Source of the DNA: a virus
Taxonomy: Duplodnaviria; Heunggongvirae; Uroviricota; Caudoviricetes
Length of the DNA: 17,708 bases
Virus record (IMG/VR): IMGVR_UViG_2706794691_000004
Reading direction: 5' to 3' (one strand)
Shown here one piece after another: positions 1 to 17,708 of this stretch (positions within the stretch are counted from its first letter, which is position 1; each line of letters starts with the position of its first letter). The notes under the pieces were generated by a model, which was not told where the DNA came from, ran no database searches, and saw only the letters and a list, made by a program, of their open reading frames with translations. The position numbers and the translations under genes are program-made.

Positions 1-919
1 ACTGGCCGATGACATACAGCGCCCATTTGTCCACATCCGCCGCACCAAGACGTTTCCCCATGCCGTAGCGCGGGTGGGTCAGCATATCCCACAGACACCA
101 GGCCATGTTGTTGCTGTATGCTGGTTTTAACGTTCCGTCCCAGATACCGCTGTATTGTCGCGTCTGCGGGTTATAGTTCGACGGCACCTGCAGAATGCGC
201 CCGCGAAGATGATAATTACGACTCACCTGCTGGCTGCCGAACTGCTCCGAGTCCACCTGTACGCCGACCAGTGCAGTGTTCGGGTAGCACTGTTTCACAT
301 CGATGATTTCGGTGTATGACGACCAGAGCGTTTTGTTCTGCAGCTGGTCTGTGGTGCTGTCCGGTGTCATCCTGCGCATCCGGATACTGAACGGGCGCGG
401 AGGCAGGTTATCCACCACCACCGAGACCAGATACTGCGAGGTGGTTTTGCCCTTAATGGTGATGTCTTTTTCCGTCACCCAGCCACCGTTACGCTGTATC
501 TGAACCAGCAGGCGGACTTCCGACGGATTCCTGTCTCCCTTTGAGGTGGTTTCCACCAGTGCCTGTACACCGAAGGTAAAGCGCAGACGGTCGATGTTTG
601 CCGACGTGATGGTCCGGGTGATCGGCGTGTCATATTTCACTTCCGTACCCAGCACCGTCTCGGAGCCGGAGGATTCAAACCCCTCCGGCGGTGACTGCTC
701 CTGCTCACCTGCCCGGAACACCACCGTGACGCCGGAGATGTTGGTATTCCCCTCATTGTCCAGCACCGGCGTACTGTTCAGCAGCACGCTTTTTAATCCA
801 TCCACCGGACCTTCAACCGGCCCTTCGCTGATGGCATCGATCACACTCAGCAGCTGCGTGGACTTCAGGTTGTCCTTCGCTTCGCGCGGGGTATGCCCCT
901 TACTGCTGCCTTTACCCAT
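1..919 (-). CDS. J: Tail tip / host-specificity protein J, N-terminal ~306 codons (continues beyond window start)
   Basis: Minus-strand ATG at 919-917 translates to MGKGSSK... and runs open to the window edge ending ...NNMAWCLWDMLTHPRYGMGKRLGAADVDKWALYVIGQ; matches the lambda gpJ N-terminus as I recall it. Not in the ORF track because every plus-frame ORF here is antisense. Confidence 0.9.
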   Translation of the reverse strand, partial: MGKGSSKGHTPREAKDNLKSTQLLSVIDAISEGPVEGPVDGLKSVLLNSTPVLDNEGNTNISGVTVVFRAGEQEQSPPEGFESSGSETVLGTEVKYDTPITRTITSANIDRLRFTFGVQALVETTSKGDRNPSEVRLLVQIQRNGGWVTEKDITIKGKTTSQYLVSVVVDNLPPRPFSIRMRRMTPDSTTDQLQNKTLWSSYTEIIDVKQCYPNTALVGVQVDSEQFGSQQVSRNYHLRGRILQVPSNYNPQTRQYSGIWDGTLKPAYSNNMAWCLWDMLTHPRYGMGKRLGAADVDKWALYVIGQ

Positions 920-3301: not shown

Positions 3302-6300
3302 TTAGCCACTTAACATTCCCCCATCACGTCGCATATTTAACAGATTGCCCTGCACCCGCTGATCAACCATCCCCATAAGTGCTTTTATTGCCTGAGGGCC
3401 AATCTCTCCATTCTGGCCGTCATTTTGAATAGTGATTTGGTATACAGGGGCATAGGTAATATCTCCGCCTCCATTACCACTTTTACTATTAATAGCTCTG
3501 ACACCAAGAGAACCATCGGAAGTTCGTGTTAATGGCATAATGGCTTCCGGTCCAGCCTCACCAAAAACACCAGCCCCTTTTGCAAAAGCAAAAAATTGCG
3601 GGGAATCATAAATACCGTTCGAATACGTGCTCAATGACGGAGACTCATAAACACCGCCCTTTGCATTCGGAATAAATTTACTAATAGCACTCCCGATAGT
3701 TCCTAAAATCCCCCCAGAAGAACTGTTACTAATGCTGTCGAAAATCCCAGTAATTGAAGCCTTTAATGCTATTCGACTAAGATCCGAAATCACGGAAGTA
3801 GCGAAAGAACGAAAATTTGCCTTGCCTGTCGTGACAAAATCACCCAGCGCATCGGTCATCCCATCAAACATCTGAGTCGTGGTTGATTTTATCTGCTCAC
3901 TGATATCCTTAGTGTCATCCAGCCAGTTATTGAATCCCTGGGAGGCACCACTAACCCAGTCTCCTGCCTGAATATCGAGCTGCTCGTTTTTCTGTCTGAC
4001 AATTTCTTTTTCCCGTTCCAGAGCATCATTCAGAGCCTGCATTTTCTCTTGAAAAACATGATCTGACATTCCACGGGATTTATCTGCATAGTCACGTTCA
4101 AGTTGCAGACGCTGATTGTTATATCCATGTTCAATCCGCAGTAATTCCTGCTGGCGNNNNNNNNNNNNNNNNNNNNNNNNNNNNNNNNNNNNNNNNNNNN
4201 NNNNNNNNNNNNNNNNNNNNNNNNNNNNNNNNNNNNNNNNNNNNNNNNNNNNNNNNNNNNNNNNNNNNNNNNNNNNNNNNNNNNNNNNNNNNNNNNNNNN
4301 NNNNNNNNNNNNNNNNNNNNNNNNNNNNNNNNNNNNNNNNNNNNNNNNNNNNNNNNNNNNNNNNNNNNNNNNNNNNNNNNNNNNNNNNNNNNNNNNNNNN
4401 NNNNNNNNNNNCCACTTAACCAGTTCCTGTTCAGAGGAACTTAATTTAACGGTCAACTCAGCTTGTGAACTTAGTAACGCATTCTGTTGATTCAGATGAT
4501 CAATCATTCGTTGGGCTGCATCATCAGAATAACCTTTCGCCTTTGGTTGCTTTGGATCTTTATAACGCTCATTTATTTGAGCGATAAGATTATTATATTC
4601 TTCCTTTGAATACTGATTCTTTAGCTTTTCCAGTTTTGCAAGTTCACTAGCTCTCTGCTGCTCCCGGGTCTGATATTGTTTTGAAAAGGCATCTGCTCTC
4701 TGTCTGAGTTCAATTCCTTCCTGTTGTCGCTTGTTGTAATCGTTTATTGATGAATTTAGTACGTCCTGAGCAATTTTTTCTGCTTGAAGTACGCCCAATT
4801 GCTGCTTTAATCGTGCCAGCCTTTTATTTTGAGCTCCGCCATCTCCAATGCCACCTAACCCGAAAACTCCGGGTCGGGTATTTTTTTCTATTTCATCAAT
4901 TTGACGGAGAACATCTGAGATTTTTTGATCAAGGGAGGCCTCACGGCCAATATCCAGCATGGAATCCCATGCCCATTTTGCGGAGTCTGCGACAGCTTTC
5001 CATGCAGTCTCAAGATAACCAAGATTTTCTTTAATCTGGTTGGTGCGCTGGATCATTGAGGATGAGTATTCTTCTGTCGCAATGCGGGCGGCCTCCTGCT
5101 GGTTCCCTTCATCCTGTAGCGCCTTAATCTGGTTATAAGTCGCAAGTGTCAGAAAATGGTACTGATCATTAAGTTTTGATATGGCACTGACAGGATCCTT
5201 TGCAATTTCATTGAAGTCATTAACCAGTTGTTCGGTTGATATTCCTGTTACTTCGCTCGTTTTTACTATCGCTGTCGTCACTTGCTCCAGCGAACTGCTC
5301 GCTACCTTTCCCGAACGCACAAGCTGATTTAATACTGCCGCCGCAGCACCAGTTGTCGAATCAGCCGCATTCCCGGCACGTTGAGCTATATCGCCCAATT
5401 GCCCGCTGGTTGTCCCCAACTGATTTCCGGTAAGAATAAGAGATTTATTAAATTCGTCCTGCTCCTGAGAGCCTTTATAGTAAGCCAGTCCTAAGACCCC
5501 AACGGCTGCTGCGGCCAGGGTAAAAGGATTAATTAATCCCAGCACATAAGAACCTACACCTTTGATCGCCGGGCCAATCCCACCGAACATATCTTTTAGC
5601 TGGCCGCCCTGCTGCATTAACACCATAAATGGCGACTGACCAGTGGACAACCCAACAACAATATCCGTCATTTGTACAGGCAACATGCGCATAGCAAAAG
5701 CCGTTTGTTTTGCCGACATTCCGGTTTTGCTTAATTGTGATTGAGTAACCTCAAGCTCACTCCGCATAGCACGAAGTTTTCCAGAAAGCTCCTCATACAT
5801 TTCAGGAGAAAGCATCCCCTTAGCTTTTGCTTCATTGAGCTGTTTCTGTTGTTCTACCAGACGATTAAAAGCAGTTCCGACAGGATCAAGTTGAGCAATC
5901 AGACGTTGCAAAGCAACAACCTGTTCATCATGCGCTTTTGCTGCTTCTCGCTCTGCCTGAGCCTCTCCGGTAAGCTCTCGCCGTGTTTCCTGTATTTTTC
6001 GGCTATAATTCTCAAACTGAGAACCATTTATTTTCCCGGATGCAAACGCAGCATTAAGTTCATCATGCTGTTGTTCAAGATTTCTTAGCGCCGCAGCCAG
6101 AGGGTCGATCTTGTCCAGCATTCTTTGAAAGGCCTGAGCCTGCGCTTNNNNNNNNNNNNNNNNNNNNNNNNNNNNNNNNNNNNNNNNNNNNNNNNNNNNN
6201 NNNNNNNNNNNNNNNNNNNNNNNNNNNNNNNNNNNNNNNNNNNNNNNNNNNNNNNNNNNNNNNNNNNNNNNNNNNNNNNNNNNNNNNNNNNNNNNNNNNN

Positions 6301-6555
6301 NNNNNNNNNNNNNNNNNNNNNNNNNNNNNNNNNNNNNNNNNNNNNNNNNNNNNNNNNNNNNNNNNNNNNNNNNNNNNNNNNNNNNNNNNNNNNNNNNNNN
6401 NNNNNNNNTGTTGCCTTAGTCACTTTCCCTGCGCTATTTGCAGCAGTTTCCCCAGCCTGCGTCATTTTGACTAATGAGGAGGTCAGATTGTCAGCATTAT
6501 TTTTCGCTCCAGTGCTATCAATAATTATTGCGAGACGCGAGGTTTGCTCTGCCAT
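3302..6555 (-). CDS. Tail tape measure protein (about 1080 aa, interrupted by two N runs)
   Basis: ATG at 6555 preceded by AGGAG; N-terminus [14 protein letters not shown]...; [37 protein letters not shown] matches the conserved lambda gpH N-terminal motif as recalled; long Q/E/K-rich coiled-coil middle; C-terminus ...[38 protein letters not shown] resembles the lambda gpH C-terminus. Frames on either side of the N run at 6148..6408 differ. Confidence 0.85.
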
Positions 6556-7538: not shown

Positions 7539-8301
7539 TCAACTAATCGCCTCAGCACTGGCTTTTGCGATCACGGCAGCCGGGGAATTTTTTTTTCTGG
7601 TTATCGTAGGTGCTTCATCTGCTGCGGTAATGCTCAATTGAACCTGGATAATGTCGCTATTACCCCCATCAGGCCATTCACCTGACACCTGAACCTTCGG
7701 GAAACTGAAAGTGTATGCCCCCTCTCCATTCGAAAGCGTGAAGCTGAACGGAACTGTTTCTCCAGTCAGTGTTTTACTCCAGATTTCCCACGCGGCTTTA
7801 GACCATGANNNNNNNNNNNNNNNNNNNNNNNNNNNNNNNNNNNNNNNNNNNNNNNNNNNNNNNNNNNNNNNNNNNNNNNNNNNNNNNNNNNNNNNNNNNN
7901 NNNNNNNNNNNNNNNNNNNNNNNNNNNNNNNNNNNNNNNNNNNNNNNNNNNNNNNNNNNNNNNNNNNNNNNNNNNNNNNNNNNNNNNNNNNNNNNNNNNN
8001 NNNNNNNNNNNNNNNNNNNNNNNNNNNNNNNNNNNNNNNNNNNNNNNNNNNNNNNNNNNNNNNNNNNNNNNNNTTGACCCCAGCGAAATTTGGTACCAAC
8101 ATCACCGCCGACATCCACAGTGCCAGGCGTCGCCCCCTGAGCCATCCGGGAGCCACCAATCTCATTATTTTCGCCTTTATTCTGGGTGGGTTTTACTCCC
8201 CAGCTTGTGCGTTTTAATAAACTCCAGTCACCACTTGCTGGCGTAGTGCCTGCAACCGTCTCCCGGATAAATGCCGAGATAACCTTTGCACCTGAACTCA
8301 C
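7539..8301 (-). CDS. Major tail (tube) protein, interrupted by an N run
   Basis: GTG start at 8301 with AGGAGG 6 nt upstream (MSSGAKVISAFIRETVAGTT...); C-terminal segment ...FSFTLSNGEGAYTFSFPKVQVSGEWPDGGNSDIIQVQLSITAADEAPTI; located directly upstream of the chaperone gene. Frames differ across the N run at 7809..8073. Confidence 0.7.
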
Positions 8302-8327: not shown

Positions 8328-8720
8328 CTAGAGCGCGCGATATGGAATTTGAAGATTAAGCTGGAACCAGCCATTCTTTTCGCCAACGGCTATTGAGGAA
8401 ACAGCCTGGTAACTGAGACGATCGTCATCCTGAAACTCAAACAGTTCCCGCAATTTATCGGCTGTCTCAGTAATGAGTTTTGAACCAGAACCTGCGGGGA
8501 CAAATAACTGAATAATGATTATCCCCGTGCGATAAACAACCGGCCCCGCGCCAATTTCATTAACTCCAGCCTGCCCGGGAATATTACTTAACCGCGCCCA
8601 GATTAACTTACCGGAAGGATCGAACGTTGGCCCGTTCGGATACAATACGTCTTTTCCATCAATAATCGTCTGTGCCGTCATTCTGGAAATAACCGTATTT
8701 CTGATTTCAGTAAACTTCAT
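8328..8720 (-). CDS. Tail terminator / tail completion protein (gpU-like size and position)
   Basis: 130-aa ORF MKFTEIRNTVISRMTAQTII...; directly upstream of the major tail gene; ATGA start/stop overlap with the preceding gene. Confidence 0.5.
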   Translation of the reverse strand: MKFTEIRNTVISRMTAQTIIDGKDVLYPNGPTFDPSGKLIWARLSNIPGQAGVNEIGAGPVVYRTGIIIIQLFVPAGSGSKLITETADKLRELFEFQDDDRLSYQAVSSIAVGEKNGWFQLNLQIPYRAL

Positions 8721-9097
8721 TTGTAAGCCTGTAAAACACCATGAAAAGCGTTGGCATACACGCCAGTTGGCGCTTGTTGTGAATGACCGTTTTCAAGAGC
8801 CTCTGCATAAGGAAGGTTATTCTGGATATAAATAACCCCGTAATTTGCAGCTTTCGAAATAACCCCGATCCCACGCTGAACAGCAATCGTACCGTTCGGA
8901 TCCACGTTATCAGATATACCAAAATCGGGATGCTGTAACGACACCAGGTTGTTATTTCTGAAACGTCCGGTATCAACCGGAGCAGCAATATCAATAGCAG
9001 TAAGAATCTGCATAGCGATGTAGCGAATCTTCAGCCCTACATCTTCCTCAATCATCCCGGCAAATATTGACGGTTCTATATCCCATGCCTTTGCCAT
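8717..9097 (-). CDS. Head-tail connector protein, HK97 gp10-like family
   Basis: 126-aa ORF with APVDTGRFRNN motif that I associate with the HK97 gp10 family; translationally coupled on both sides. Confidence 0.55.
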   Translation of the reverse strand: MAKAWDIEPSIFAGMIEEDVGLKIRYIAMQILTAIDIAAPVDTGRFRNNNLVSLQHPDFGISDNVDPNGTIAVQRGIGVISKAANYGVIYIQNNLPYAEALENGHSQQAPTGVYANAFHGVLQAYK

Positions 9098-9481
9098 TTA
9101 CGCTCTCCTTAACTGGATAGAGTAAACTGATGCGGAAGGATCTACACTTGCTGTAATTACCTCGTATCGTTGTAACTGCCTTGATACAGGATCATAAATC
9201 TCAATAATATGGTCGACAGCTGGTTTATCCGTAACCTCGCATACCAGAGCGGTTAATTTAAGGTCACCATGCAAAATATTAATCCCATCAATTCTGCCCA
9301 GCTTATAACGTGTCAACACGCCTCGCCCGGTATAGATTGCGGTTGATTCGCCGCCAGTTTCCGTCACAGGATCCCAGTGCCGGTGCGTAACGTAAGAACC
9401 AGAAAAATCACTCACGGCGTCCGCTAAATCCTCATCAAAAGCAGCGGCAACCTCTGACTGAATCTCTTCACGAAGCCCCAT
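9098..9481 (-). CDS. Head-tail connector / head closure protein (family uncertain)
   Basis: 127-aa ORF MGLREEIQSEVAAAFDEDLADAVSDF...; GAGGGGGG RBS; sits between other connector genes. Confidence 0.45.
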   Translation of the reverse strand: MGLREEIQSEVAAAFDEDLADAVSDFSGSYVTHRHWDPVTETGGESTAIYTGRGVLTRYKLGRIDGINILHGDLKLTALVCEVTDKPAVDHIIEIYDPVSRQLQRYEVITASVDPSASVYSIQLRRA

Positions 9482-9491
9482 TATCCCCCCC

Positions 9492-9803
9492 TCACAACCC
9501 TGACTTGTGAGCGACTAAGTCCGTACGGNNNNNNNNNNNNNNNNNNNNNNNNNNNNNNNNNNNNNNNNNNNNNNNNNNNNNNNNNNNNNNNNNNNNNNNN
9601 NNNNNNNNNNNNNNNNNNNNNNNNNNNNNNNNNNNNNNNNNNNNNNNNNNNNNNNNNNNNNNNNNNNNNNNNNNNNNNNNNNNNNNNNNNNNNNNNNNNN
9701 NNNNNNNNNNNNNNNNNNNNNNNNNNNNNNNNNNNNNNNNNNNNNNNNNNNNNNNNNNNNNNNNNNNNNNNNNNNNNNNNNNNNNNNNNNNNNNAGTGAT
9801 CAT
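9492..9803 (-). CDS. Probable head-tail adaptor, almost entirely masked
   Basis: ATG at 9803 preceded by GGAG; only MIT... and ...RTDLVAHKSGL are readable; rest is N (9529..9794). Confidence 0.3.
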   Translation of the reverse strand: MITXXXXXXXXXXXXXXXXXXXXXXXXXXXXXXXXXXXXXXXXXXXXXXXXXXXXXXXXXXXXXXXXXXXXXXXXXXXXXXXXXXXXXXXXXRTDLVAHKSGL

Positions 9804-13248: not shown

Positions 13249-14658
13249 TGATTTCCATCAGCATTACACTCTGATTTTTTAATTCATCGATCACTTCCTC
13301 TGGACGGGAATCCTGATCGATAAATTTCAACGCCTGCAACACCCGAACCGCATCAATCTGACGTATATCACCGCCCTGACGCAATGACTGAACAGCCAGC
13401 GCGGAGGATGAGTCAAACACCTGGGCAGATACATCCAGTTCAGTGCGCACATCCACATTGCCACCGCAACTCTCTCCGATCCATTCCGCCATTATCTGGA
13501 GAATATTATCGAGGGCATCTTCGAGGGAGTTCGCCATTGTATAAAGCGGCGAGTTTTCCTGCATTCGCTCTTCATTAGTCTGATCAACAGATTTGGTGGA
13601 TGTATTTTCAGCACGCAGNNNNNNNNNNNNNNNNNNNNNNNNNNNNNNNNNNNNNNNNNNNNNNNNNNNNNNNNNNNNNNNNNNNNNNNNNNNNNNNNNN
13701 NNNNNNNNNNNNNNNNNNNNNNNNNNNNNNNNNNNNNNNNNNNNNNNNNNNNNNNNNNNNNNNNNNNNNNNNNNNNNNNNNNNNNNNNNNNNNNNNNNNN
13801 NNNNNNNNNNNNNNNNNNNNNNNNNNNNNNNNNNNNNNNNNNNNNNNNNNNNNNNNNNNNNNNNNNNNNNNNNNNNNNNNNNNNNNNNNNAGATTAAGCA
13901 ATGGCGGTGTACCACGCATAAATCCTGTTTTCTTCGTGTACAGTGTTACCAGAGGAATATCATCACGGCTGGTATTCCATGACTCATGAAGCGTCCAGAC
14001 AGATTNNNNNNNNNNNNNNNNNNNNNNNNNNNNNNNNNNNNNNNNNNNNNNNNNNNNNNNNNNNNNNNNNNNNNNNNNNNNNNNNNNNNNNNNNNNNNNN
14101 NNNNNNNNNNNNNNNNNNNNNNNNNNNNNNNNNNNNNNNNNNNNNNNNNNNNNNNNNNNNNNNNNNNNNNNNNNNNNNNNNNNNNNNNNNNNNNNNNNNN
14201 NNNNNNNNNNNNNNNNNNNNNNNNNNNNNNNNNNNNNNNNNNNNNNNNNNNNNNNNNNNNTCTTTCATATCCGTTCGTGGATAGTCCACCAGCGCATGTG
14301 CCACACCATACTGAAATGCGAGGCTGAAAAATTGCTGCGCCCACACATCCAGTCGGCTCCCCTCCATGTCGATATTTTCTGCATATTCCCTGATTTTTGC
14401 CGGCGTTTCCTCACTCAATACTGTCGGCTCTGCAAATATGCGCCCAATATTTTGCTTGATGCTTTCTTCATACACAGGAAGTAGCGTAGCCACAGACAGG
14501 CGTTTTTTATAAGCGTCTTCATCTTCGTTAGGCCATTTTGGGAGATAATTTTCCCCCTGCCTGCGCATTTCAAGCGTACCGCCCATCAGTGCGTCGTTAA
14601 TATCCCACGCCTCCAGCATATCGTTATAGTCGAGGTTGGGTGTTGATATATCAGCCAT
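13229..14658 (-). CDS. Portal protein (interrupted by two N runs)
   Basis: ATG at 14658, 2 nt after the large terminase stop; N-terminus MADISTPNLDYNDMLEAWDINDALMGGTLEMRRQGENYLPKW...; about 475 aa; canonical position after the large terminase. Confidence 0.65.
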
Positions 14659-14660
14659 AA

Positions 14661-15971
14661 TTAAATCCGAAGTGATGTGACTCTTCCGGTCGGTTTGACA
14701 ATAGGGAATTGCTTAACGATGAAATAACCTCCGGCATCATTCGGGTGATCATTGCCAGATTTTTTATCAGGCTCCCCCTTCTCATCCCAGACCTGTTGCT
14801 CCAGAGATTCGGCATATAACGGGCAACGCTTCACATTAACTTTATAGCGACGCTCACCATTGGCATTGCAGAACATTGCATTCATTGAGTTAACGCGATC
14901 TTTTACTGGCGGGTTCGAGCTGTTCACCACAACGTTAAAACCAGCCTGCTTAAGCTGGGCTATATCCGTCGTACTTGCGTTACTTGATTTTCTGGAATCC
15001 CCGGAAGCATCTGGATAAATATAAATTTCCCTCACTTTCCGGTAATCATTCCCATCATACAGCCAGAAGCGTTCTTTAATGATGCGGATCATATCCGGCG
15101 TATCGTAGGCATTGATGATTTCAGTTACCGCACATGGAAGCCCCAAACGCAGCACATGGACGATTCCCGCCATCTTTCCAACGTTAAAATCCATCCCAAT
15201 ATAAATCGGCTCCCCTGGCTGCTCCACTTCTTCGCAATTATTCAGTTTCCGGTCAAACTGATGGTAAACAGTACCACTTGTCAGGTTAGTAAACTGTCCT
15301 CGAAGATAGGCTTTAATCAGCTCTGGAGGGTATGATTCAAGAAGCGAAGGAATGTAATCTGCTGGCAGGTTCTTTTCATTATCGAAAGTAGATGCCTGCA
15401 CCAGACCATACAGTGAGGCCAGCTCTGTTTTTTCACGCACGGCTTTAACAAACTGCTCGTAGACAAATTTGAATCCTTCCGGCGTGGTTGTAACGTCAAT
15501 ACCGTTGCGAAGTCCATCAATCTTATAACGCATACGTGCAATTATCTTGCGCCACGCCGTTCTGGCTTTTTCCTTCGGCAAAATGTCCAGTTCATCCACC
15601 AACGCATTACCAATTTTGAAACCGACGATCGTTTGTGGCTTCTCCATCGATCTGCAGATAGTGGTTCCCCGATACTGGCGTCCGTAATAAAAGTGAACCT
15701 CTTTATTTCCCTCATTAATTTTTACGTTCAATCCCCAGTCAGCAGCAACTTCTTCCACTGTAGGGTAAAAAATATCGCGAATTTGGGGATACGTTGGCGC
15801 AAAATATCCCTGATTTATACCTGGATGCTCCCAAATCCCCTTGCATATGCCGCCACACCCAACCCATGTTTTGCCCGAGCCAAAACCAGCAATATAGGCT
15901 TTAAATTTATGGGGCATTGAAAGAAATCGCGCCTGAGGCACATTAAGCGTCGGAGAGATCATCTTCATCAC
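14661..15971 (-). CDS. Terminase large subunit
   Basis: 436-aa ORF with Walker A AYIAGFGSGKT near the N-terminus and acidic motifs (VDELD; YIYPDASGD) consistent with ATPase and nuclease domains. Confidence 0.85.
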   Translation of the reverse strand: MMKMISPTLNVPQARFLSMPHKFKAYIAGFGSGKTWVGCGGICKGIWEHPGINQGYFAPTYPQIRDIFYPTVEEVAADWGLNVKINEGNKEVHFYYGRQYRGTTICRSMEKPQTIVGFKIGNALVDELDILPKEKARTAWRKIIARMRYKIDGLRNGIDVTTTPEGFKFVYEQFVKAVREKTELASLYGLVQASTFDNEKNLPADYIPSLLESYPPELIKAYLRGQFTNLTSGTVYHQFDRKLNNCEEVEQPGEPIYIGMDFNVGKMAGIVHVLRLGLPCAVTEIINAYDTPDMIRIIKERFWLYDGNDYRKVREIYIYPDASGDSRKSSNASTTDIAQLKQAGFNVVVNSSNPPVKDRVNSMNAMFCNANGERRYKVNVKRCPLYAESLEQQVWDEKGEPDKKSGNDHPNDAGGYFIVKQFPIVKPTGRVTSLRI

Positions 15972-17044
15972 TCCTTACTCTGGCATCAACCACATTAATA
16001 TTGATCGCCACAGGCTGGGGATGTTCATTATCTTCCACCGTTTCGATCTCTTTGCGCAGCTTCTGGTTTTCCATTCTGCGCCGTTCAATTTCCAGTTCCC
16101 GTAGCCGCTTATCTGCACATAAAGCCCCGCCAGCAGAAAACAAACGCAACAATTCACGCCGGGCGGCAGCCTTATCCTCCAGCAGGATCTCAACGCCGAA
16201 TTTTCCGAATTTTGCCCCTGCATATAATTGCCGCGCATCCCCATCAAGCAGAGTGGTATCAGCCATATAAAGCTGTCCCGTTCCCTCACCGCAGCACTTC
16301 GGGCAGTCCGGATTGGGTATGGCGTTATCAACAAAGCCGAGGCCTCCATATTCCGGTTCGGGTTTGCCATCTCTGGAAGCCTGCGCCGCTGCCTTGTCGA
16401 ATTCTGCTATATCGCGCCACTGGTAGAGATGATTCTCGCCCCAGCAATAACGGCAGTTAACACGGCGAAATTGTGCAAGCTGATTGGGGTCGGCCAGGAC
16501 AATAGCCATCAACTGACTCACTAGTAAATCCAGGTCTGCGGTATAGCGTTTCTGGTACTGATTGCGGAAGTAGCTGANNNNNNNNNNNNNNNNNNNNNNN
16601 NNNNNNNNNNNNNNNNNNNNNNNNNNNNNNNNNNNNNNNNNNNNNNNNNNNNNNNNNNNNNNNNNNNNNNNNNNNNNNNNNNNNNNNNNNNNNNNNNNNN
16701 NNNNNNNNNNNNNNNNNNNNNNNNNNNNNNNNNNNNNNNNNNNNNNNNNNNNNNNNNNNNNNNNNNNNNNNNNNNNNNNNNNNNNNNNNNNNNNNNNNNN
16801 NNNNNNNNNNNNNNNNNNNNNNNNNNNNNNNNNNNTGTGCAGTCTGCGCAGATTTTTTCTGCGCACTTTTTTGCGCAGTTTTGCACATTTCTGTCTGCGC
16901 ATTTTTCGGAGTTTTTTTGATGTAACGACGGGCTGTTGCGTAATTCAGTCCCCTTGCTTCACACCATGCCACCGGAGATATACCGGAGCGGGTGTATTCA
17001 GCAATATACTCCTGCTGCAACGCCCCCCAGTCCGGTCTGCTCAT
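15943..17044 (-). CDS. Terminase small subunit (N-terminal HTH segment plus Cys-rich C-terminal segment; may be two genes)
   Basis: N-terminus MSRPDWGALQQEYIAEYTRSGISPVAWCEARGLNYATARRYIKK resembles a small-terminase HTH; after the N run the ORF encodes CRYCW...DCPKCCGEG and a basic coiled tail ...RLRELEIERRRMENQKLRKEIE, overlapping the large terminase start. Frames differ across the N run at 16578..16835. Confidence 0.55.
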
Positions 17045-17047
17045 CAG

Positions 17048-17708
17048 TTAGTCCTGATTTTTATCCACCCTGAGTAGTTCGCGCAGAGCAAAGGCATCCC
17101 CTTTTCTGGCAAGCTTAAACAATGCCGCTCGTAACTCGGCTNNNNNNNNNNNNNNNNNNNNNNNNNNNNNNNNNNNNNNNNNNNNNNNNNNNNNNNNNNN
17201 NNNNNNNNNNNNNNNNNNNNNNNNNNNNNNNNNNNNNNNNNNNNNNNNNNNNNNNNNNNNNNNNNNNNNNNNNNNNNNNNNNNNNNNNNNNNNNNNNNNN
17301 NNNNNNNNNNNNNNNNNNNNNNNNNNNNNNNNNNNNNNNNNNNNNNNNNNNNNNNNNNNNNNNNNNNNNNNNNNNNNNNNNNNNNNNNNNNNNNNNNNNN
17401 NNNNNNNNNNNNNNNNNNGACTGGCACCCATAAGTGAGATTTTTACGCACGACGGCGCATACATGACGGAGTAAAAACTTTTAACGTAGGTTCCGGAATC
17501 CAGATACAGCTCGGTCATTCCGCCGCTGTTTTTCTGCGTCTGTTTCTGCCCTAACTGGACAGCACCGATCGTCATAAACAATTCACCACAGCGACCGAGA
17601 TTCGTGTACGTATTCACATCCTCGTTAATGCGCCCCATGAATGAGAACGGTCGATCAACCGAACAGATAAAGCTGTTCATTGCCTTGCGTTTCACCCACG
17701 AAGCATGG
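17048..17708 (-). CDS. Hypothetical protein upstream of the small terminase, function unassigned
   Basis: Minus-strand ORF; the track's start at 17695 is a GTG and the frame is still open at the window edge, so the gene may begin outside the window; readable part ...KRKAMNSFICSVDRPFSFMGRINEDVNTYTNLGRCGELFMTIGAVQLGQ...; stop is 1 nt before the small terminase ATG; contains the N run 17142..17418. Confidence 0.4.
   Translation of the reverse strand, partial: HASWVKRKAMNSFICSVDRPFSFMGRINEDVNTYTNLGRCGELFMTIGAVQLGQKQTQKNSGGMTELYLDSGTYVKSFYSVMYAPSCVKISLMGASXXXXXXXXXXXXXXXXXXXXXXXXXXXXXXXXXXXXXXXXXXXXXXXXXXXXXXXXXXXXXXXXXXXXXXXXXXXXXXXXXXXXXXXXXXXXXAELRAALFKLARKGDAFALRELLRVDKNQD

Follow-up and report, generated by a model that had tools for sequence, protein, structure and literature searches.

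A truncated small-terminase-like gene between a ParB-glycosyltransferase cassette and the terminase genes of a Rac-type prophage

Genes at the end of the window

The stretch of DNA analysed here (the window, 17,708 nt) belongs to a Rac-type lambdoid prophage at ttcA, and the region studied lies in its late operon. The prophage carries intR, xisR, ralR, recET, racC, kilR and sieB, then lysis genes, the trkG cargo and ynaK, with ydaY and the tail genes lying beyond the studied region; the window thus covers late genes that the Rac remnant of K-12 has lost by deletion. Both readable flanks of the mask at 17142..17418 matched E. coli EC2 (NZ_CP058571.1, locus L001) at 100% identity; the gene order there is a ParB_N protein, a TAGT-family protein, an 83-aa ORF, the small terminase TerS (364 aa), TerL and the portal. 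From ParB_N to portal these genes are co-directional and abut or overlap, and the genes at the window end are likewise all on the minus strand. The only terminator-like hairpin in L001 comes after trkG and before ParB; the stretch from ParB to TerL showed neither a promoter-like site nor a strong terminator on the same strand, and an Rfam search gave no RNA family in the region. The window end holds the following features:

15943..17044, minus strand: small terminase TerS (364 aa in L001, 9648..10742), Pfam Terminase_2 E = 3.8e-8, phrog_51 E = 7e-75
17045..17047, minus strand: 3-nt spacer, CTG, from the small-ORF stop to the TerS ATG
17048..17299, minus strand: predicted truncated phrog_309-type small-terminase-like HTH gene of 83 aa (L001 9393..9644), stop TAA at 17048..17050
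17142..17418, no strand: N-mask of 277 bases, hiding 260 nt of real sequence with the TAGT stop, the small-ORF start and the 65-nt overlap
17252..17708, minus strand: 3' part (~152 of 316 codons) of a predicted TAGT / GREB1-related GT-A glycosyltransferase gene, readable flank equal to L001 9001..9290

The start of the 83-aa gene was estimated from the proximal flank and the TAGT stop from the distal flank. The 83-aa gene is readable over its last 31 codons (17048..17141), its start and first ~52 codons being masked; the TAGT gene continues past the window end and is readable at 17419..17708 (residues ~166-262) and masked at 17252..17418.

The sequence-only reading had described 17048..17708 as one gene, and the minus-strand frame is open in both readable flanks: translation from 17707 gives 97 readable codons, ~92 X codons over the mask and 31 readable codons ending AELRAALFKLARKGDAFALRELLRVDKNQD*. 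Because a run of N cannot hold a stop codon, the existence of this ORF rests wholly on the length of the mask, which is off by 17 nt, 260 nt lying between the flanks in EC2 where the window has 277 N. With 260 nt between them, the flanks do not share a frame and belong to two genes, which in L001 are the TAGT ORF at 8507..9457 (316 aa) and the 83-aa ORF at 9393..9644, overlapping by 65 nt; RefSeq also annotates two genes here in EC2, a 'GREB1-related protein' and a 69-aa 'hypothetical protein'. Many E. coli chromosomes equal the flanks letter for letter, a match being present in 964 of 5426 complete genomes, and the 360-nt stretch made up of the masked DNA and the small ORF was at least 95% identical in 891 of the 5426, with a constant length among the full-length matches listed. 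The single frame at 17048..17708 is an artefact of the N-mask, and the region consists of two genes. A long cargo ORF of more than 220 codons, which would begin past the window end and reach the terminase, has in its favour that the frame stays open across the mask as given, but the real DNA has both a stop and a frame change, and no fused form occurs among 123 homologues of the small protein, the longest of which is at most 115 aa. Such an ORF is refuted for all reference genomes and could be rescued only if the source genome alone had an insertion of 17 nt, which leaves it with practically no likelihood.

The earlier reading was right to place a stop codon just upstream of the small-terminase ATG (TAA 17050..17048, ATG 17044..17042, minus strand), the spacer being 3 nt (CTG) instead of the 1 nt that it had counted. 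Its unassigned gene coupled to TerS survives as the 83-aa gene, which abuts TerS and is very probably co-translated with it, and does not survive as one long ORF. The readable sequence that it had taken to be N-terminal is instead the interior of the TAGT protein (residues ~166-262 of 316) on the distal side and the C-terminus of the 83-aa protein on the proximal side.

Eight masks occur in the window (4157..4411, 6148..6408, 7809..8073, 9529..9794, 13619..13890, 14006..14260, 16578..16835 and 17142..17418), and all of them (255-277 N) differ in length from the near-identical reference (about 245 to 465 nt). Since the mask lengths are not faithful, frames carried across any mask of the window are meaningless, and listed ORFs that span a mask are artefacts. 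Additionally, the tape-measure gene, which is interrupted by IS1 in EC2 (L044 3995..4692), appears in the window as an uninterrupted 939-codon frame (3302..6121) that crosses the mask at 4157..4411; the IS1 in EC2 and the lack of an interruption in the window indicate that the window is not EC2 itself.

An 83-residue protein related to small terminases

The 83-aa ORF matched nothing in Pfam or NCBIfam, and its 123 homologues, 83-90 aa long and down to ~50% identical, are all labelled hypothetical. The family occurs in at least ten enterobacterial genera, with hosts that include Citrobacter, Klebsiella, Serratia, Yersinia, Erwinia, Pantoea, Cronobacter and Salmonella. Depending on the alignment, 13-17 columns are invariant, and conservation runs from residue 1, with K6, A11 and A12 invariant or nearly so; the start of the 69-aa RefSeq version, M15, is L in many family members. 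The start expected under the mask is GGGGTGACAAATG, and the ATG of the ORF is preceded by GGGGTG, a strong Shine-Dalgarno sequence that is kept in several other lineages. The conservation N-terminal to M15 and the upstream Shine-Dalgarno sequence argue that 83 aa, rather than the 69 aa of RefSeq, is the correct form. Synonymous sites of the gene are saturated (pS 0.7-1.0) while pN is 0.13-0.36, and dN/dS was 0.13, 0.18 and 0 in three unsaturated pairs; by these measures of sequence evolution the ORF is a genuine gene, and purifying selection acts on it. A pseudogene reading was considered and rejected. The AF2 model of the family protein, built from a 31-sequence alignment whose first row (P0002) is 96% identical to the L001-derived 83-aa sequence, has a pLDDT of 92 and predicts HTH helices at residues 4-12, 17-24 and 28-31 (pLDDT >90), a long helix at 35-65 and a final helix at 69-82. 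The final codons of the small ORF contain an AGGA element that resembles a Shine-Dalgarno sequence.

The protein matched the PHROG profile phrog_309, 'terminase small subunit', at E = 8.3e-23 over profile positions 145-218 of 319 only. A profile search of 1.84 billion representative proteins with the 83-aa family gave 683 matches, and those outside the enterobacterial family were proteins of 110-170 aa matched over their residues ~10-90; all ten that we sampled belonged to phrog_309, with E-values from 1e-22 to 1e-35. Two metagenomic relatives and the 129-aa TerS of Pasteurella phage Pmp13 are encoded directly upstream of TerL and the portal. Furthermore, a BFVD fold search was led by phBC6A51-type homeodomain proteins and 'terminase small subunit' proteins with TM scores of 0.7-0.8. 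Among PDB entries two solved small terminases with an N-terminal HTH, the phBC6A51 protein (2ao9) and Sf6 gp1 (3hef), were the top or near-top Foldseek matches of the 83-aa model, although these were weak (E>1, TM 0.3-0.4) and the 83-aa protein has no equivalent of their C-terminal region; a PDB sequence search with the small-ORF profile gave no meaningful match.

Full-length phrog_309 relatives (for example the TerS of Pmp13, and P0126 and P0130) are homologous to the 83-aa protein over its whole length, sharing the HTH and the 'AIKRGxAKG' and 'G(D/N)..A' helices, and are themselves often preceded by a ParB-methyltransferase gene. In our alignment (A3) the invariant QQIADVLD motif of the 83-aa family falls on the HTH of the full-length members, and the long 'RKGRAKGEAELR' helix is also kept, as is the 'GD..A..L' helix after it, whereas the basic N-tail of the relatives is missing and the family ends at the 'LK..AGW' motif, so that the last 35-60 residues, found in every full-length relative, are absent. 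An hhalign comparison of alignment A2 with A3 is circular, A3 itself including family members, and carries no weight here. In solved small terminases (Sf6 gp1 / P22 gp3) the part that follows this motif makes up the distal barrel or tail and touches TerL. The relatives, at 110-170 aa, abut TerL; the 83-aa gene, in contrast, is separated from it by an unrelated TerS, the 364-aa Terminase_2 protein. Judged by homology and alignment, the 83-aa protein is an evolutionarily cut-down phrog_309-type small terminase, which, as it lacks the C-terminal part and does not lie beside TerL, we do not class as a small terminase itself.

An HNH, methyltransferase or lysis identity, all of which had been considered for the terminase-proximal gene, was rejected. 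No HNH, holin, endolysin or spanin match was found in Pfam, NCBIfam, PHROGs or PADLOC, and the lysis genes that the earlier reading had suggested looking for among the upstream neighbours (essD/rrrD/rzpD) lie 3 kb further upstream, beyond trkG.

The TAGT glycosyltransferase and the ParB cassette

The larger gene, whose readable sequence the earlier reading had placed in no family, encodes a protein that Pfam TAGT (PF20691) matches over residues 14-228 with a score of 118.8 bits, the curated cut-off being 27.5 (E = 4.1e-34). It also matches phrog_842 (E = 8e-104), in agreement with its RefSeq name. An alignment of seven TAGT sequences has 50 invariant columns, among them DDD108-110, the GT-A DxD motif; these columns are common to the Enterobacterales, Lactobacillus-phage and halovirus homologues, and many lie inside the part readable in the window. 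On the evidence of profile and motifs the distal gene is a TAGT-family (GREB1-related) GT-A glycosyltransferase with its C-terminal half in the window. A PDB sequence search with TAGT gave no meaningful match, and PADLOC found no defence system for TAGT, the small ORF or TerS. The role of the TAGT family in DNA sugar modification (PMC13390438) and its relation to GREB1 (PMC7968844) have been described, and the profile, the DxD and the C-terminal motifs of the family, to which the T6-type beta-glucosyl-HMC-alpha-glucosyltransferase and animal GREB1 belong, are common to the prophage protein. Compared with TAGT systems that have a TET/JBP enzyme, the prophage differs in that no TET/JBP (5mYOX) dioxygenase or hydroxymethylase is annotated across the whole EC2 Rac-type prophage. 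It differs also in a C-terminal extension of ~25-30 aa that the Rac-type copy alone possesses. This extension (L001 9393..9457, window ~17252..17299) is read in another frame across codons 1-21 of the small ORF; the TAGT genes of other lineages end at the small-ORF start or 4-16 nt beyond it, and the extension looks like the product of a lost stop codon.

The only partner of TAGT in the Rac-type prophage is ParB_N. Its gene, ynaK, lies upstream of the window and forms an overlapping pair with TAGT, and the product matches ParB_N (E = 8.7e-7) and phrog_620 (E = 1.7e-90). In EC2 RefSeq annotates ynaK as a truncated pseudogene (7744..8001); the real ORF is intact (262 aa, L001 7744..8532), overlaps the TAGT start and matches ParB_N and phrog_620 over its full length. 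Literature searches on ynaK and the Rac prophage, and on the combination of ParB, methyltransferase and small terminase, returned nothing relevant.

Lactobacillus phages, Nocardia phage NTR1, Vibrio jumbo phages and the archaeal virus HHTV-2 encode TAGT homologues that are 40-46% identical, and where inspected these are again paired with a ParB gene ahead of the terminase genes. The overlapping ParB+TAGT pair, at this level of identity, was seen in Lactobacillus phages c5 (L027) and phi jlb1 (L028) and in halovirus HHTV-2 (L029). In both Lactobacillus phages it directly precedes the terminase genes, in c5 adjoining the cos site, and in HHTV-2 it lies about 2.9 kb upstream of TerL. No dioxygenase was present near the pair in the stretches seen of these three, and no small ORF accompanies it in the Lactobacillus phages or HHTV-2. 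More generally, a ParB_N gene beside a modification enzyme and upstream of TerS/TerL was found in Enterobacterales, c5, phi jlb1, Pmp13 and HHTV-2.

Every small-ORF locus examined has the small ORF between a ParB_N cassette and the terminase genes, with ParB_N within 2 kb upstream in all ~30 non-Rac loci (at least 12 phage lineages). The cassette takes the form of ParB+TAGT, of a ParB-N6_N4-methyltransferase fusion or, in one case, of a methyltransferase followed by ParB; one E. coli phage backbone exists in both the ParB+TAGT and the ParB-methyltransferase version, with the small ORF in each, which bears out the earlier suggestion of variable cargo in the position just before the small terminase. 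On the other side the small ORF was found next to at least four different TerS types, usually a Terminase_2 type (37-52% identity), with two other types in Yersinia and a lambda-like DUF1441/GpA terminase in Cronobacter. The start of the small ORF overlaps the stop of the upstream enzyme by 4 nt in several lineages. Its junction with TerS is a TGATG or TAATG overlap in six lineages and the 3-nt spacer in the Rac type, while three lineages have gaps of 197-780 nt. Yersinia phage vB_YenM_29.18 and Klebsiella phage ST846-OXA48phi9.2, which have the same TerS type and no ParB cassette, have no small ORF.

Conversely, among 209 phage records that carry this type of ParB_N, a small-ORF homologue was detected in 11 and not detected in 198. 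An IMG/VR scan with the small-ORF alignment gave only near-identical Rac-type loci among the 80 matches listed. Distances between small ORFs correlate with those of ParB_N (r = 0.56) and of TerS (r = 0.67) in a Mantel-type comparison, two similar values that do not separate the partners and that are inflated by near-duplicate loci. Among 52 IMG/VR loci with a full-length phrog_309 TerS and at least 2 kb of upstream sequence, 21 (40%) had a ParB_N ORF just upstream; as this proportion has no matched control, the universal ParB neighbour of the small ORF could reflect inherited gene order and not function.

Possible roles at the packaging boundary

Phage ParB homologues without an obvious DNA-binding domain are known to activate a DNA-modifying dioxygenase on dsDNA (PMC13229309), and it has been suggested that ParB guides modification enzymes to the DNA while this is being packaged, a proposal cited in PMC8256090. 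The ParB-activated 5mYOX thymine dioxygenase pathways (PMC13229309) resemble the present loci in having a ParB_N protein without an obvious DNA-binding domain, beside a DNA-modifying enzyme and near the terminase; they differ in the partner, which is here a glycosyltransferase or methyltransferase and not a dioxygenase, and that work describes no extra TerS-like HTH protein. An HTH-less ParB that activates a modification enzyme, taken together with the proposed targeting by ParB during packaging, favours a reading in which the 83-aa protein acts as a DNA-recognition adaptor that links the ParB cassette to packaging initiation, and to this inferred role we give a little less than even weight. 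The loci speak for it through the constant ParB_N neighbour beside at least four TerS types, through the 4-nt overlaps with the upstream enzyme and through the missing small ORF where that TerS type occurs without the cassette; against it stand the many ParB_N phage records, and the ParB+TAGT pairs of Lactobacillus phages and HHTV-2, that have no small ORF. On the simplest history the ancestral order would have been a ParB-enzyme cassette followed by a phrog_309 TerS and TerL, and a different TerS-TerL module would then have replaced the 3' part, leaving behind a shortened TerS gene on which selection has acted ever since and which has moved together with the ParB cassette. The product, a leftover of the TerS that formerly stood behind the cassette, would be a sequence-specific DNA-binding adaptor, made from the same late transcript as its neighbours and translationally linked on both sides. 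It may still recognise phage DNA near the packaging start and so tie the ParB-guided enzyme, be it the TAGT of this prophage or the methyltransferase of other loci, to the initiation of packaging, with activation of TerL performed by the downstream Terminase_2-type TerS. In a bolder and rather doubtful version, the 83-aa protein would be the missing DNA-recognition subunit of the HTH-less phage ParB, loading it by the packaging start so that DNA is modified during packaging.

The tight stop/start coupling to TerS in most lineages (TGATG/TAATG overlap or 3-nt spacer) would fit a pure packaging role equally well. The 83-aa protein could be a second, DNA-recognition-only TerS subunit that acts at pac with TerS or modulates it and has no tie to ParB or TAGT, as its small-terminase ancestry would allow. 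Its C-terminal half tracks the TerS type, in that L006 and L041, which have the same TerS, also agree in that half, and 'GDAFALRELL' is common to EC2 and L016 along with the long TerS. The same TerS type, however, works without the small ORF in vB_YenM_29.18 and ST846-OXA48phi9.2, the small ORF stands beside at least four unrelated TerS types and is uncoupled from TerS by 197-780 nt in three lineages, and the protein lacks the C-terminal part of its full-length relatives, so that we regard a packaging-only role as unlikely, if still deserving of some weight. It is improbable that the small ORF is a functionless 5' remnant of a displaced TerS, kept as a patch of recombination homology between the modification and terminase modules: the truncated architecture, the location at a mosaic junction with exchange on either flank, and the apparently independent recombination of the N- and C-terminal halves are all as such a remnant would have them, but saturated synonymous sites with low pN and a dN/dS of 0.13-0.18, a constant length of 83-90 aa, a Shine-Dalgarno sequence and start codon conserved across genera, a confidently predicted fold (AF2) and retention at ≥95% identity in 891 E. 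coli genomes are not.

A late-gene transcription regulator is a further candidate by analogy with the RinA/ArpU-type activators whose genes precede terS in Gram-positive phages. A small HTH protein encoded directly before terS, with weak HTH-family similarities among its relatives, is what such a regulator might look like. The best homology is nevertheless to small terminases and not to regulators, the Q-type antiterminators of these prophages already drive the late operon, and the stretch from ParB to TerL offers no promoter-like site or strong same-strand terminator, all of which makes a regulator very improbable.

The adaptor reading, should it hold and the family couple modification to packaging, would provide a handle on how an HTH-less phage ParB finds DNA and would bear on the role of TAGT in a prophage that has no hydroxymethyl-base pathway; without such coupling the 83-aa gene would be an ordinary mosaic-junction gene. 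Rac-type prophages are present in about one E. coli genome in six, with TAGT there lacking a supplier of hydroxymethyl-pyrimidine, and if the ParB-loading version were true it would imply an undescribed glycosylation of DNA (or of a packaging protein) in a very common coliphage. Irrespective of the role, the comparison removes a false 'long unknown ORF' from the annotation and corrects the start of the 69-aa RefSeq gene, for which conservation supports 83 aa. What is new is the 83-aa small-terminase variant, the larger gene belonging to the known TAGT family. The variant represents a conserved, so far unnamed family, by its homology a small terminase stripped to its DNA-binding core, that marks the boundary of ParB-guided modification cassettes and packaging genes in enterobacterial prophages.

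The downstream TerS consists of an N-terminal HTH, a TAQK/SAQK linker and the Terminase_2 core, with the mask at 16578..16835 lying inside the gene. Inside the Terminase_2 region (15943..16577, L001 10108..10742) there are two CxxC pairs (NCRYCW..., CPKCCGEG), which also occur in the TerS of L016 and, as sequence motifs, suggest a zinc-ribbon insertion. The TerS gene additionally holds four exact TGCGCA boxes and two degenerate ones (TGTGCA, TGCACA) at ~12-nt spacing, in a cluster at 16845..16901 (TerS codons ~48-70, minus strand; L001 9786..9859) that encodes the TAQK/SAQK linker; 4 of the 10 TGCGCA sites of the window thus fall within 57 nt. The TerS type of L002/L006/L037 has no such cluster. 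It is present at the same gene position in TerS of 37-65% identity, namely those of L016, L021, L023 and Klebsiella phage ST846-OXA48phi9.2, the last of which has the cluster though it carries neither ParB nor the small ORF, and we consider it a candidate pac or TerS-binding array.
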